64,000 nt of DNA from Candidatus Omnitrophota bacterium (GCA_028716565.1 JAQUPL010000001.1:211545-275544), one strand, 5' to 3'. Counted from the stretch's first letter, positions 18,225-23,814 are shown. The notes: a model not told the origin generated them from the sequence alone. Translations and numbers: made by a program.

Positions 18225-18319
18225 TGAGATTTAAGTCTCGCTCGGCTTTATTTATTACTCGCAATGGCTATTATCCTGCTGCGTCATAAACCGGCTCTGC
18301 GCGAGACGTTAAATTTCAT
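18225..18319. repeat. 95-bp palindromic intergenic repeat (MITE/ERIC-like), copy 1 of 3
   Basis: Shares the termini ..ATTTAAGTCTCGC... and ...GGCTCTGCGCGAGAC(A/G)TTAAATTTCA with the copies at 21122 and 23720. The ends are inverted repeats (about 18 bp stem with one bulge) and the central ~25 bp diverges. Sits between the guaA stop and the dnaE start. Confidence 0.85.
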
Positions 18320-18335
18320 ATGATCAAATCTTTTC

Positions 18336-19880
18336 CTACTCCCATTCTATAGTAGAAGGCGGCTTGGAGCTTATGTCGTAGACGACGCGGTTGACGCCCC
18401 TCACCTCGTTTATTATCCTGTTGGAGATCTTCTCTAGCAGGTCATAAGGCAGCCGCGCCCAATCGGCGGTCATCCCGTCGGCACTCGTCACGGCCCGGAG
18501 GGCGATGACGTTCTCGTAAGTCCTCTCATCCCCCATTACTCCCACCGTCTTTATCGGGAGCAGCACGGCGAACGATTGCCATACCTCCCTGTAAAATCCC
18601 GCCTTCTTGATCTCTTCTATCACCGCGACGTCGGCCTCGCGCAAGATATTGAGGCGTTCCTTCGTGACGTCGCCTATGATCCTTATGGCCAGTCCGGGCC
18701 CGGGGAACGGCTGGCGCAAGACAATCTCGTCCGAAAGCCCCATCGCCTTCCCGACCTGCCTCACCTCGTCTTTGAATAATTCGCGCAGCGGTTCGACAAG
18801 CTTTAGTTTCATCTTCAGCGGCAGACCGCCGACATTGTGGTGCGACTTGATGGTCGCCGAAGGGCCGCCGAACGCGGACTTTGATTCGATGACGTCGGGA
18901 TACAATGTCCCCTGCGCAAGGAATCCTATCTTCCCGAGCTTCTTCGCCTCTTCTTCGAATACGCGGATGAACTCATGGCCTATTATCTTGCGTTTCTTTT
19001 CAGGGTCGACGACCCCTTTCAGTTTATTGAGGAACCGCGACTCGGCGTTCACGTATTTCAGGTTGATATGGAAATGCTTTTTGAAAGTCTTGACTACGCG
19101 TTCGGCCTCGCCCTTCCTCAGGACGCCGTTATTGATGAATATGCAAAATAGCCGCTTGCCTATCGCCTTATTGATGAGGACGGCGGCGACGGACGAATCT
19201 ACTCCGCCGGAGAGGCCGCAGACGACCTTTTCTTTTCCCGCCACATCCCTTATATTTTTGACGGTATCGTCTATGAAGGACTGCATCGTCCAATTCCCCC
19301 GGCACCTGCAGATATTACACAGAAAATTCGCGATTATCCTGCTGCCCTTGGGGGTGTGGGCGACCTCGGGATGGAACTGGACGCCGTAGAGGCGCCTTGC
19401 CTTGTCAGCTATAGAGGCAAATTCGGTATTATAGGTATGGCCGATCTTGTTGAAGCCGGGGGGCAAACGCGAGACATAATCGCCATGGCTCATCCAGCTG
19501 ATTATTTTATTATCGAGCCCGGCGCAGAGGCCCTCGAAATCATCTATAAGGAATTCGGCGTGCCCGTATTCGCGTTTCCCGGCCTTGGTAACTTTGCCGC
19601 CGAGCATATGAGCCATAGCCTGCATGCCGTAGCAGATGCCCAGGACAGGGATCCCCAGTTCGAATATCTCTTTCTTAGGTTTGGGCGCGCGGGCGCCGTA
19701 GATCGAGGCGGGGCCTCCGGAAAGGATAAGCCCTTTCGGGTTCAGTTTCCGGATCTCTTCGGCCGTGATGTCATGCGGGACTATCATGGAGAACACTTTA
19801 TTCTCCCTGACACGGCGGGCTATCAACTGGTTGTATTGCGAGCCGAAGTCTAAAACAAGGATAACCTCATGCTGCGGCAT
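18336..19880 (-). CDS. guaA: GMP synthase (glutamine-hydrolysing)
   Basis: 514 aa; class I amidotransferase N-terminus (GICYGMQ), ATP-PPase motif SGGVDSSV, and a C-terminal GMP synthase dimerisation domain. Confidence 0.95.
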
Positions 19881-21041
19881 CTATTTGCCCATTCCGACCC
19901 TTTGTACCTGTTGGAATATCTTACCTTCCGTCCTGATCGACGGGGCTATGATGATCTCTGTCTTCTGGAATTCTTTTATGCTCGAGGCTCCCACCGAACC
20001 CATCGATGTCTGTAACGCGCCCATTAAGTTCTGCGAGCCGTCGTCGAACCTCGCCGGCCCGAATAGTATCTCTTCGAGCAAACCGGTCGTTCCGACATGG
20101 ATCCTCGTGCCGCGCGGAAGGTTCGCGTGCGGCGTGGCCATTCCCCAATGGTAACCGCGCCCCGGCGCCTCTATCGCGCGGGCGAACGCCGAGCCGACCA
20201 TGACCGCGTCAGAGCCGCAGGCGAACGCCTTGCAGATATCGCCGCCTGTCCTCATACCGCCGTCTGTTATTATGGGGATGTATTTCTTGGTCTTCTTGAA
20301 AAAAGCGTCCCTTGCCGCGGCGCAATCCACAGTCGCGGTGACCTGCGGTACGCCGATGCCTAAGACGCCTCTTGTCGTGCAGGCCGCGCCGGGGCCGATG
20401 CCGACCAATATACCTGCGGCGCCTGCGGCCATCAGTTCATACGCGACCTCGTATCCGACGCAATTGCCTACGATGACGGGTATCTTCGACGCCCTGGCGA
20501 ACCTCTTGATATCCAGGGCCTGGTATTCTTTGGATATATGCTTGACCGTGCTGACCGTCGATTGTATGACGAATATGTCCGCGCCGGACTCCTGCGCGAT
20601 CTTCCCGAACCTCTCGGCGCGCTGCGGGATAGCGCTCACCGCCGCCGGGACATCTGCGTCCTTGATTTGGCGGATGCGCTTTTCGATAAGTTTTTCCTGG
20701 ATCGGTTTTGTGTAGATCGATTGGATTATTTCCGTGGCTTTTTCGGGATCGGCTTTTACGAGCTGTTCAAGGACCTCATCGGGGTCCTCGTATCTTGTCT
20801 GGACGCCCTCTAGGTTCAAGACGGCGATGCCGCCGAGCTTTCCCATGGCGATGGCGAATTTAACGTCTACCACGCCGTCCATGGCAGCTGCCAGGATCGG
20901 GACGTTGAATTTTTTTCCGTCAATTTTCCAGCTTGTGTCCACTTCGGCGGGGTTGATCGTCACTCTTCCGGGGGCTAACGCGATTTCATCGAAACCATAA
21001 CAGCGGCGGGCCTTACGTTTGATGCCTATATATTCACCCAT
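19881..21041 (-). CDS. IMP dehydrogenase family protein lacking the CBS subdomain (GuaB3-like; IMPDH or GMP reductase)
   Basis: 386 aa TIM-barrel protein with an IMPDH-type catalytic loop including the Cys (GIGPGAACTTRGVLGIGVPQ). There is no ~120-aa CBS pair. It directly abuts guaA. Confidence 0.75.
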   Translation of the reverse strand: MGEYIGIKRKARRCYGFDEIALAPGRVTINPAEVDTSWKIDGKKFNVPILAAAMDGVVDVKFAIAMGKLGGIAVLNLEGVQTRYEDPDEVLEQLVKADPEKATEIIQSIYTKPIQEKLIEKRIRQIKDADVPAAVSAIPQRAERFGKIAQESGADIFVIQSTVSTVKHISKEYQALDIKRFARASKIPVIVGNCVGYEVAYELMAAGAAGILVGIGPGAACTTRGVLGIGVPQVTATVDCAAARDAFFKKTKKYIPIITDGGMRTGGDICKAFACGSDAVMVGSAFARAIEAPGRGYHWGMATPHANLPRGTRIHVGTTGLLEEILFGPARFDDGSQNLMGALQTSMGSVGASSIKEFQKTEIIIAPSIRTEGKIFQQVQRVGMGK

Positions 21042-21071
21042 ATATCAGGAACCTCCTTGAAATAGGGTTAT

Positions 21072-21100
21072 ATGATACAAAAATCACCCGCAAAAGTCAA
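21072..21100 (-). promoter_or_regulatory. putative sigma-70 promoter for guaB-like/guaA (-35 TTGACT, 17-nt spacer, -10 TATCAT)
   Basis: Minus-strand TTGACT at 21100..21095 and TATCAT at 21077..21072. A GGAGG SD lies 9 nt before the ATG at 21041. Confidence 0.45.
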
Positions 21101-21121
21101 GGAAAAGAGCGTTCCGCTTTA

Positions 21122-21216
21122 CTGAAATTTAAGTCTCGCTTGGCCTTATTTATTACTCGCCTCAACCATTAGCAACTGCGTCATAAACCGGCTCTGCGCG
21201 AGACATTAAATTTCAG
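21122..21216. repeat. 95-bp palindromic intergenic repeat (MITE/ERIC-like), copy 2 of 3
   Basis: CTGAAATTTAAGTCTCGCTTGGCCTTATTTATTACTCGCCTCAACCATTAGCAACTGCGTCATAAACCGGCTCTGCGCGAGACATTAAATTTCAG. The 11-bp termini are perfect inverted repeats. About 97% identical to copy 3. Lies 21 bp upstream of the guaB -35. Confidence 0.9.
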
Positions 21217-21276
21217 TAAAAATAATACGCCCCTTAGCTATCAGCATAAGGGGCGTATTTGTATTCAGCAGTTGTA

Positions 21277-23261: not shown

Positions 23262-23281
23262 TTTCTACCGCCTCCCTTTTG

Positions 23282-23569
23282 TTATTTGACTATCGCCAAA
23301 ACTTCCGATTCCCTTAATATTAGAAGGTCTTCCCCTTTGTAGTTGATCTCGGTGCCGCCGTAACGGCCGTAAAGGACCGTATCTCCGGCTTTCACTTCCA
23401 GTTCTTTTATCTTTCCGTCATCCAGGAGCTTTCCTTTACCAACGGATACTACTTTGCCCTTGGACGGTTTCTCCTGCGCCGTGTCAGGCAGGATTATGCC
23501 GCTTTTTGTCTTACTTTCGCTCTCCGTGGGCTTGACCAAAATCCTGTCACCTAACGGTTGAACCGCCAT
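23282..23569 (-). CDS. groES: co-chaperonin GroES (first copy, upstream of groEL)
   Basis: 95 aa; [49 protein letters not shown] and a promoter lie upstream. Confidence 0.93.
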
Positions 23570-23635
23570 TTAACACCTCCTTAAAGATTGTTTTGGCTTA
23601 AATTTAGCTAGATTTACCTAGGAATTAAGCGGAAA

Positions 23636-23662
23636 TTAGCACTCCATATTGGCGAGTGCCAA
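23636..23662 (-). promoter_or_regulatory. CIRCE element (HrcA operator) in the groES-groEL leader
   Basis: TTAGCACTC-CATATTGGC-GAGTGCCAA matches the CIRCE consensus TTAGCACTC-N9-GAGTGCTAA at 17 of 18 positions. Confidence 0.85.
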
Positions 23663-23673
23663 CTTTGTCATAT

Positions 23674-23701
23674 ATTATAGATTTTCTAGGGAATTTGTCA
23701 A
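23674..23701 (-). promoter_or_regulatory. sigma-70 promoter of the groES-groEL operon (-35 TTGACA, 16-nt spacer, -10 TATAAT)
   Basis: Minus-strand TTGACA at 23701..23696 and TATAAT at 23679..23674; CIRCE lies immediately downstream in the leader. Confidence 0.7.
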
Positions 23702-23719
23702 GAAAAAAATTATTTATCC

Positions 23720-23814
23720 CTGAAATTTAAGTCTCGCTTGGCCTTATTTATTACTAGCCTCAACCATTAGCAACTGCGTCATAAACCGGCTCTGCGCGAG
23801 ACATTAAATTCCAG
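23720..23814. repeat. 95-bp palindromic intergenic repeat (MITE/ERIC-like), copy 3 of 3; overlaps the 3' end of coaX
   Basis: Near-identical to copy 2 (2-3 mismatches). Begins 19 bp upstream of the groES -35. Its distal 36 bp encode the last 12 codons and the stop of coaX. Confidence 0.9.

Follow-up and report, generated by a model that had tools for sequence, protein, structure and literature searches.

What is one and the same 95-bp palindrome doing three times within 6 kb of bacterial DNA, each time beside essential housekeeping genes? The question arises in a stretch of 64,000 nt (hereafter the window, meaning the whole stretch) from a Candidatus Omnitrophota bacterium (GCA_028716565.1 JAQUPL010000001.1:211545-275544), a member of an uncultured phylum of very small, possibly host-dependent bacteria. 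An initial annotation of the window had noticed the three copies and had suggested a MITE (a miniature transposable element with inverted repeats), an element of ERIC or REP type acting as terminator or on mRNA stability, or a regulatory insulator. The observation was confirmed by our analysis, and the interpretation is partly supported: we estimate at about 0.6 the probability that the three copies belong to a new, Omnitrophota-restricted family of small, non-coding, hairpin-forming dispersed repeats, which behaves as a non-autonomous element of the MITE, ERIC or Correia kind. We base this assignment on the terminal inverted repeats, the long hairpin, the position at gene 3' ends with co-transcription, the occurrence in both orientations and the patchy presence in relatives. 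Beyond what had been seen initially, we found that an asymmetric core is the most conserved part of the element, that its stems covary and that its orientation relative to the flanking genes is random.

Dispersal and turnover of the repeat in Omnitrophota

A repeat search recovered the three 95-bp copies that had been reported in the window (Table 1). They occupy the spacer between guaA and dnaE (copy 1, site C), the spacer between groES2 and guaB (copy 2, site B) and the junction of coaX and groES1 (copy 3, site A). Their similarity follows the pattern described initially with somewhat different figures: copies 2 and 3 share 98% identity over 95 nt (previously ~97%), and copy 1 departs from them in the central ~17 nt (previously 25 bp). 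Blocks of 38 and 40 nt are common to all three copies, and a 29-nt block is invariant among them. The inverted terminal repeats CTGAAATTTAAGTCTCGC ... GCGAGACATTAAATTTCAG and the capacity of either strand to fold into a long hairpin, both noted before, are borne out as well (z-scores -3.4 to -6.6); a 15-mer of the arm finds 8 matches at up to 3 mismatches, against 2.0 expected from shuffled sequences (0 of 100 shuffles reach 8). We define as sense the strand that reads GCGCAGAGCCGGTTTATGACGCAG ... GAGTAATAAAnnAGGCCAAGCG, which for all three copies is the minus strand of the window. A covariance model of the element, run with filters off, detects the three copies in the 64-kb window but no others, degenerate or otherwise. 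Two contigs of metagenome-assembled genomes (MAGs) at NCBI, GCA_028714115.1 and GCA_028711645.1, match the window, with identical GuaA, the same three copies and the same gene order.

The initial annotation had allowed for a repeat confined to this locus; we found it on many contigs of about ten Omnitrophota species. Pattern scans combined with the covariance model yielded ~45 copies from ~10 Candidatus Omnitrophota MAG species and from metagenomes. An exact 20-mer of the invariant block occurs at 26 loci in ~10 species-level MAGs, all labelled Candidatus Omnitrophota or Omnitrophica with the exception of two labelled "uncultured Planctomycetia", and a looser two-block pattern retrieved 18 further true copies from Joint Genome Institute (JGI) metagenomes. 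The recovered copies score 87-124 bits in the model, and there are 1-7 exact-core copies per genome, with the caveat that exact-match searches may narrow the apparent range of the family. Eight 17-mer matches in viral contigs and two hits of the metagenome scan (L041 and L045; L numbers denote loci) were dismissed as chance matches that the model does not recognise. Blastn searches with the element against phages, plasmids and E. coli genomes (5,426) gave no match. Rfam 15, searched with 6 kb, gave no hit at the gathering score or at E <= 10, and a 141-nt query returned noise only. A literature search found no published account of this element, nor of any other small dispersed repeat from Omnitrophota. 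We therefore regard it as a family not described before, though of a familiar kind.

Orthologous spacers were compared among relatives ranked by the identity of their GuaA to that of the window, a comparison the initial annotation had proposed, and empty sites, an inverted copy and replaced copies were found. Site C is occupied in the sense orientation in the window and L061 (91% GuaA identity), occupied in the antisense orientation in the MAGs fen_1319 (L058, 92%) and E3_bin-509 (L023), and empty in L059 (88%), L060 (87%) and L062 (87%), where the spacer measures just 20-36 nt. The copies in L061 and L058 represent an exact inversion at the same site, since the flanks align, TA lies on each side and a derived GGGAC arm is common to both; this inversion is a difference between species only. 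The orientation is also flipped 5' of the tRNA-Arg-CCG gene (L018 versus L013) and 5' of DUF3108 genes (L047 versus L030, L026 and L022). In both of these tRNA loci, from two species, the tRNA gene lies within ~10 nt of a hairpin copy, whose relative orientation is opposite in the two loci; the L018 copy has a completely different outer stem. Site B is occupied in the window, in L029/L042/L048, in L059 and in L024, and in fen_1319 (L019) and L062 it holds a different repeat in place of the hairpin. Site A is occupied in the same orientation in four species, with orthologous copies in L008, L010/L058 and L027. The exact insertion boundaries could not be placed, because at sites C and B the spacers that lack the hairpin either have diverged too far or are filled by other repeats.

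Similarity is higher among the copies of one genome than among those at orthologous sites. The site A and site B copies of the window are nearly identical, as given above, versus 67-88% identity between the site A copy of the window and its orthologs, and the site A and site C copies of fen_1319 are 94% identical and both contain a nested 33-nt insert. This argues for re-copying or gene conversion, and the clustering of three copies in 6 kb is probably the outcome of copying on a local scale, or of gene conversion, from one spacer to its neighbour. The family is thus dispersed, it has been gained, lost and inverted at orthologous sites, and it is homogenised or re-copied within genomes. Two subfamily-II copies of one MAG (in L005 and L017) share 87% identity over ~190 nt of their upstream flank, which indicates that these two were duplicated as part of a longer segment.

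As for placement, we counted 15 sense and 18 antisense copies between co-directional genes. The upstream stop codon lies no more than ~18 nt from the edge of the element, or inside it, in about half of 34 cases: three genes stop at the terminal TGA of the element, one at a TAA in its arm and the coaX genes at an internal TGA. The start of the next gene is usually farther away (median ~65 nt). The neighbours are housekeeping genes, often of one operon, such as archease-rtcB (twice), aroC-aroK (twice), dnaK-dnaJ, rplU, rpmB, mreB, mraZ and yebC, together with tRNA-Arg-CCG (twice) and DUF3108 (four times). The family lodges, in either orientation, in the few free bases past stop codons inside housekeeping operons, and sometimes supplies the stop itself. 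A functional theme among the neighbours was sought with Pfam and rejected; the genes are a mixture of housekeeping functions that includes a few of the heat-shock response (groES, dnaK/dnaJ, M48 protease) and makes no consistent regulon.

Architecture of the hairpin

The layout of the element was derived from RNAalifold and a covariance-model alignment of 43 copies. The element measures ~93-126 bp and contains no open reading frame (ORF). In ~85% of copies the outer stem is formed by an imperfect inverted repeat, (C)YTGAAATTTAA(Y)GTCTCGC (18-22 bp), in which (C)YTGAAATTTAA pairs with TTAAATTTCAR(G) and GTCTCGC with GCGAGAC, with one bulged pyrimidine in the 5' arm. Inside it follow an internal loop (GCAGA/AA), helices P3 (G(A)GCC/GGCC) and P4 (TTTAT/ATAAA), a 2 x 4 loop (GA/AGTA) and helix P5 (CGC/GCG), which together make up the core, GCAGAGCCGGTTTATGACGCAG ... 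GAGTAATAAAnnAGGCCAA. The 5' half of the core is invariant or nearly so in all copies, also at positions outside the search patterns, and TAATAAA and AGG of the 3' half are invariant. The apical region, by comparison, falls into three or more sequence types, with covarying GC-rich hairpins among them. Two subfamilies, marked by ...AAGGCCAAGCGAGAC versus ...AAGGACACAAGCYWAGAC, exist side by side in the same MAGs, and the second carries GGACACAAGCYWAGAC in the 3' core half. Three copies contain, within the apical region, a nested GC-rich hairpin of 33 nt, CCCCGCTCTTTCTAACGAAAGAGCGGG, along with a duplicated ACGCAG; it looks like an insertion within an insertion. A mini-ORF in the core (ATG ACG CAG ... 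TAA) was considered and rejected, as the length changes of the apical region are not multiples of three and inspection revealed no evident Shine-Dalgarno sequence.

The outer helix is maintained by pairing. Among 42 distinct copies, double (compensatory) changes occur at all 18 of its 18 pairs, 97% of the cells remain paired, and none of 500 shuffles reaches the observed values; the inner helices never vary and are uninformative on covariation. In four copies (L007, L018, L015/L043 and L036) the outer stem is wholly different in sequence, still complementary, and encloses an intact core. One of them, L007, comes from the same MAG, E3_bin-509, as L023 and L027, which have the canonical stem; consequently, the sequence of the arms cannot be what a genome-specific factor reads.

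The mismatches distinguish the two strands. On the sense strand G.U cells outnumber A.C cells by 35 to 10, six copies have a tandem G.A pair (5'-CGAG/CGAG) that would be C.T on the opposite strand, and the sense RNA fold is the more stable one in 27 of 42 copies (mean difference -2 kcal/mol). This asymmetry moderately supports the view that one strand, as RNA or as single-stranded DNA (ssDNA), is the folded form.

These features suggest how the element could work. The outer stem would only have to pair, serving as a scaffold, and the core would be the part that is read, most likely by a protein encoded in trans that recognises the folded sense strand (ssDNA or RNA) through its asymmetric loops. 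Since the core is more conserved than the ends and the mismatches are strand-asymmetric, such a protein is a likelier candidate than a classical DDE transposase reading double-stranded terminal repeats; it might serve either mobility or a host RNA function. Copies within operons (guaA-dnaE, archease-rtcB, aroC-aroK, dnaK-dnaJ) would be co-transcribed and form an intercistronic stem-loop with a possible influence on how the mRNA is processed or how stable it is, of the sort that ERIC, REP and Correia elements exert. The family amounts to a natural experiment on selection, in which the stem changes freely provided that pairing is kept, the apical loop is unconstrained and two short asymmetric loop blocks never change, a combination that points to recognition of a folded single strand. 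The covariance model provides a handle for seeking the partner protein by co-occurrence across genomes.

The nature of the element

Longer variants that arise through internal insertions appear to be common to the element and to the ERIC/IRU family, for which Hulton et al. are said to have described, in 1991, such variants as well as a conserved central repeat. The ERIC/IRU sequences, imperfect palindromes of ~127 bp from Enterobacteriaceae that are classed as MITEs, resemble the element also in their size of ~100-130 bp and their long imperfect hairpin, in lying in intergenic DNA that is transcribed, close to gene 3' ends, in either orientation and with TA flanks in some copies, and in their low-to-moderate copy number with no transposase known (PMC3184786). 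Published traits of bacterial MITEs, which our element matches, include inverted repeats at the termini, long stem-loops in the RNA, positions at gene 3' ends where they are co-transcribed and, for ERIC, flanking TA (PMC3184786). However, there is no sequence similarity (none of the 5,426 E. coli genomes matched) and the host phylum differs, as the named hosts of our element are all Omnitrophota MAGs; here a pair of asymmetric internal loops is conserved and the terminal stem is wholly replaceable. ERIC sequences are known to affect mRNA in an RNase E-dependent way.

The Correia elements of Neisseria (CREE/NEMIS) are likewise hairpins of ~100-155 bp with terminal inverted repeats, located near gene starts and ends, co-transcribed, and present or absent in close relatives (PMC3184786). 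They differ in that a TA duplication is clear, that an IHF site and outward promoters are present and that the copies number in the hundreds, whereas in the Omnitrophota element we saw by inspection no IHF consensus and found no promoter, and the number of exact-core copies per genome is low. The REP sequences and REPINs, mobilised by RAYT, are similar in consisting of a hairpin of two inverted arms downstream of coding regions, in persisting for long as a within-genome population and in their presumed recognition as a folded single strand (PMC3116915, PMC3733652). A REP is defined as a palindrome of 20-40 nt with an unpaired GTAG or CGTC tag at one end (PMC3733652); our element has no such tag, its spacer-proximal core is conserved rather than the REP arms, its copy number is far lower and no RAYT gene was seen near any copy examined. 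The pneumococcal BOX, RUP and SPRITE elements are also small interspersed repeats with predicted stable RNA structures that are transcribed with their neighbours (PMC3049150). BOX differs in its modules boxA, B and C, and RUP in its link to an IS630-type transposase and a TA target; neither sequence nor model similarity connects any of the three to our element. The initial assignment to MITE or ERIC/REP-like repeats is thus supported in the dispersed, MITE/ERIC-like behaviour; neither a transposase nor a parent element was seen, and there was no sequence or Rfam match to a known family.

Several observations weigh against a MITE-like element. No transposase gene lies beside the element in ~40 contexts examined, ~600 kb of Omnitrophota DNA contain neither solitary arms nor a parent insertion sequence, and the covariance model found no decayed copies; neither the low copy number nor the lack of decay is usual in a selfish MITE, and both would agree with selection acting on each copy. 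Conservation is higher in the core than in the terminal repeats, the reverse of what a transposase reading terminal repeats predicts, although part of the core invariance reflects how the copies were found, with search patterns that lay within the core. In these four respects (no parent, few copies, no decay, a core more conserved than the ends), and in that no clear target duplication was found, the family departs from a textbook MITE. TA occurs on both sides at site C, at copy 2 of the window and in L029 and L032, but strict extension of the stem leaves TA on the left of 10 of 39 copies (p = 0.004), on the right of 4 of 39 (not significant) and on both sides of none, the self-complementary TA merging with the stem. 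Sites A and B have one orientation in four of four species examined, so that the distribution is in good part vertical. Finally, compensatory changes in a long DNA palindrome can also come from templated (quasipalindrome) mutation without selection on folding.

Some of these observations would be expected of a structured RNA module selected by the host for intercistronic processing, stability or protein binding, with a functional sense fold, which spread by duplication and not by transposition; we consider this rather unlikely, but still the strongest of the alternatives. Invariant asymmetric internal loops combined with covarying helices are a classic signature of functional RNA, the excess of G.U over A.C cells and the tandem G.A pair favour one strand, and the GA/AGUA loop next to an A-U helix resembles, in sequence, a loop-E or bulged-G submotif. 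Low copy number without decay, the long occupation of sites A and B, and the many copies that lie inside operons and hence are certainly transcribed point the same way. Random orientation is difficult to reconcile with this explanation, as about half of the copies would be transcribed as the wrong strand, and so is the inversion at one site between close relatives without visible consequence. A private promoter was looked for and rejected (mean score of the -35/-10 pair upstream 5.6, versus 6.2 in the control flank), the flanking genes have no common function, relatives with 87-88% GuaA identity have empty sites, and no Rfam family matches.

A variant of the MITE-like interpretation, to which we give a still smaller chance, is an ssDNA hairpin element of REPIN/RAYT or IS200/IS605-PATE type, mobilised by a Y1 (HUH) transposase that is encoded elsewhere and reads the folded top strand and the core. 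It would explain a stem that needs structure and not sequence, a conserved asymmetric core with a bulged base, strand-asymmetric mismatches and the lack of a clear target duplication. TTAC is enriched in the 5' flank, and TCAA stands at the end of many copies; these are the cleavage tetranucleotides of IS608, which we regard as a lead only. Persistence at low-to-moderate copy number with evolution within genomes is also known from REPINs (PMC3116915). Yet the hairpin foot lacks the conserved unpaired GTAG/CGTC tag that is the defining mark of tagged REPs (PMC3733652): the CGTC present in about half of the copies consists of the bulge and paired stem bases, and the other half have TGTC. Moreover, no Y1 transposase or RAYT gene adjoins any copy in the ~40 contexts examined, the ends of IS200/IS605 form two separate short hairpins and not one long one, the positions just outside the putative TTAC/TCAA cuts covary (columns 5-6 with 179-180), which is unexpected of host flanks, and both orientations occur within one replichore (sites A and C of fen_1319).

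On a more speculative note, the core, carried by a stem of which no more than pairing is required, might act as the recognition module for a hairpin-specific system so far undescribed in Omnitrophota, either an ssDNA or RNA mobilisation system distinct from RAYT and IS200/IS605, or an intercistronic RNA module that has been domesticated and is bound by a protein particular to the phylum. We hold this to be a doubtful but attractive idea, as the finding would carry more weight if the core were the handle of such a system; if the element is merely a MITE, it makes one more routine entry among the known bacterial repeats.

It is quite improbable that the element acts as a site in double-stranded DNA, whether as an inverton or as a protein-binding or cruciform insulator upstream of promoters. 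Inverted repeats around an asymmetric segment, the two orientations found at one site, a XerC/D-like recombinase gene adjoining one site, and the ends of copies 2 and 3, 19-22 nt upstream of strong -35 boxes, agree with this model. However, no sigma-70-like hexamer pair was found within the element, core included, most copies lie just past stop codons in operons and not ahead of promoters, and the orientation fixed at sites A and B makes flipping an evolutionarily rare event. The complete replacement of stems within E3_bin-509 (L007 versus L023 and L027) speaks against a sequence-specific double-stranded site in the arms, and a duplex site leaves the strand-asymmetric mismatches unexplained. 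The insulator or terminator proposed initially is without direct support: a separate canonical terminator precedes copy 2, and copy 1 is part of the guaBA-dnaE transcript. Sites of dif/Xer and parS type, an IHF consensus and a k-turn were considered and rejected on spacing or sequence.

We regard as refuted the ideas that the repeat was triplicated locally, that it is plain conserved spacer DNA or that the copies are attC sites of an integron. They were suggested by three copies in 6 kb with none elsewhere in the window and by an apparent likeness of the arm ATTTAAC and its other strand GTTAAAT to R'' and R' boxes (RYYYAAC/GTTRRRY). Against them stand the dispersal of the element over many contigs and species and its empty sites and, for attC, a C of AAC that bulges out unpaired and is replaced by T in about half of the copies, "cassettes" that would be the essential housekeeping genes dnaE, groESL and guaBA, the mixed orientation and the absence of an integrase.

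Local setting of the window copies and companion repeats

The genes around the three copies (dnaE, guaA, a GuaB3-type IMPDH-like gene [guaB], groES2, groEL, groES1, coaX, birA and uvrB) are all on the minus strand. The description of the copies as lying in short intergenic gaps just upstream of the next start or -35 box is correct as to the distances of 19-28 nt, and needs to be amended for copy 3, which overlaps the 3' end of coaX. Copy 1 begins 17 nt past the guaA stop codon, ends 28 nt ahead of the GTG start of dnaE (18196) and lies within the guaBA-dnaE transcript. Copy 2 is situated between the intrinsic terminator of groES2 and the guaB promoter, whose -35 box is 22 nt from its end; copy 3 ends 19 nt from the -35 box of a perfect groES1 promoter, and its stem reaches ~23718-23816.

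Copy 3 is only in part intergenic, since it contains the stop codon of coaX. Element sequence makes up the final 11 codons of this gene (within 23779-23814), so that the repeat supplies a C-terminal tail of 11 residues plus the stop, and profiles of type III pantothenate kinase end at about residue 247 of the 258 residues of the window CoaX. The repeat-supplied tail and stop are found in L010 and L027 as well. The element thus rewrites gene ends, sits inside essential operons (guaBA-dnaE, groESL) and flags positions at which the assemblies and annotations of closely related MAGs may disagree.

Table 1. Coordinates of the hairpin copies, their parts and nearby features; positions refer to the window or to the locus named.
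Feature	Sequence	Position	Strand	Remarks
Copy 1 (site C)	window	18225-18319	minus	105 bits in covariance model
Copy 2 (site B)	window	21122-21216	minus	117 bits in covariance model
Copy 3 (site A)	window	23720-23814	minus	118 bits in covariance model
Copy 2, outer stem, 5' arm	window	21198-21216	minus	CTGAAATTTAA, bulged T, then GTCTCGC
Copy 2, invariant core, 5' half	window	21176-21197	minus	GCAGAGCCGGTTTATGACGCAG: loop GCAGA, P3 G(A)GCC, P4 TTTAT, loop GA, P5 start (CGC)
Copy 2, hypervariable apical stem-loop	window	21160-21175	minus	
Copy 2, invariant core, 3' half	window	21140-21159	minus	CGAGTAATAAATAAGGCCAA: P5 3' strand, loop AGTA, P4 ATAAA, P3 GGCC, loop AA
Copy 2, outer stem, 3' arm	window	21122-21139	minus	GCGAGACTTAAATTTCAG
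Copy 1, strict TG...CA unit	window	18225-18318		TA flanks at 18223-18224 and 18319-18320
Copy 2, TA flanks	window	21120-21121 and 21217-21218		
coaX stop codon TGA	window	23779-23781	minus	inside copy 3, from its TTTATGAC
guaB promoter	window	21100->21072		TTGACT-17-TATCAT
groES1 promoter	window	23701->23674		TTGACA-16-TATAAT
CIRCE operator	window	23637-23663		TTAGCACTC-N9-GAGTGCCAA
groES2 intrinsic terminator	window	21225-21262		AATACGCCCCTT...AAGGGGCGTATT, then T-run
groES - groEL - groES	window	21277-23569		
Copy with nested 33-nt hairpin	L010	1492-1636		these three copies in fen_1319 and E3_bin-509
Copy with nested 33-nt hairpin	L019	3814-3958		
Copy with nested 33-nt hairpin	L023	3339-3483		
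Subfamily-II copy, duplicated segment	L005	~400-575		
Subfamily-II copy, duplicated segment	L017	~2250-2431		
tRNA-Arg(CCG)	L018	1996-2072	plus	
tRNA-Arg(CCG)	L013	2809-2885	minus	
Second repeat	L011	~679-790	minus	
Second repeat	L014	~281-400	minus	
Second repeat	L022	~2420-2513	plus	
Second repeat	L028	~7430-7544	plus	
Second repeat, incomplete	L044	4728-4755	plus	short form
Second repeat, incomplete	L004	1-90		partial
197-nt repeat	L019	6849-7045		
197-nt repeat	L006	3214-3408		
197-nt repeat	L062	3897-4087		
~110-nt repeat	L019	6716-6829		again in L023, twice in L025
REP-like palindrome	L009	4386-4419		
REP-like palindrome	L039	130-163		
REP-like palindrome, variants	L011, L016, L021, L034, L037			

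The chaperonin genes next to copies 2 and 3 have features of their own. The terminator after groES2, a canonical GC-rich hairpin followed by a T-run directly 5' of copy 2, is kept in L029 and L019. Behind the groES1 promoter we found a CIRCE operator, which suggests that the chaperonin operon is under the control of HrcA. The gene order groES - groEL - groES is unusual and is retained in relatives; the two GroES paralogues of the window are 49% identical.

The neighbourhoods of the hairpin seem to collect other repeats. A second repeat of ~130-150 nt was found 25-35 nt 5' of the hairpin, on the same strand, at six loci beside unrelated genes (mreB, DUF3108, aroK, rplU), in two of them in incomplete form. 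Its interior, CCGCACCGCTCG ... CTCGCTCGGAGAATCTTCTCGCTC ... GAATCTTCTACGTGCGG, is conserved, its long closing stem varies between copies and stays complementary, and it has no hit in Rfam. In the loci examined it occurs only beside the hairpin, and the fixed spacing hints at a larger composite unit.

A GC-rich repeat of 197 nt (80-94% identity among three loci) fills the groES2-guaB spacer in fen_1319 and L062, where other species have the hairpin, and in L006 directly abuts a hairpin copy, replacing its first base. A further repeat of ~110 nt in L019 recurs in two other loci (Table 1). Directly 3' of the hairpin, seven loci of different MAGs carry a short REP-like palindrome, AGATTGCTTCGTCGCTACGCTCCTCGCAATGA, five of them as variants.

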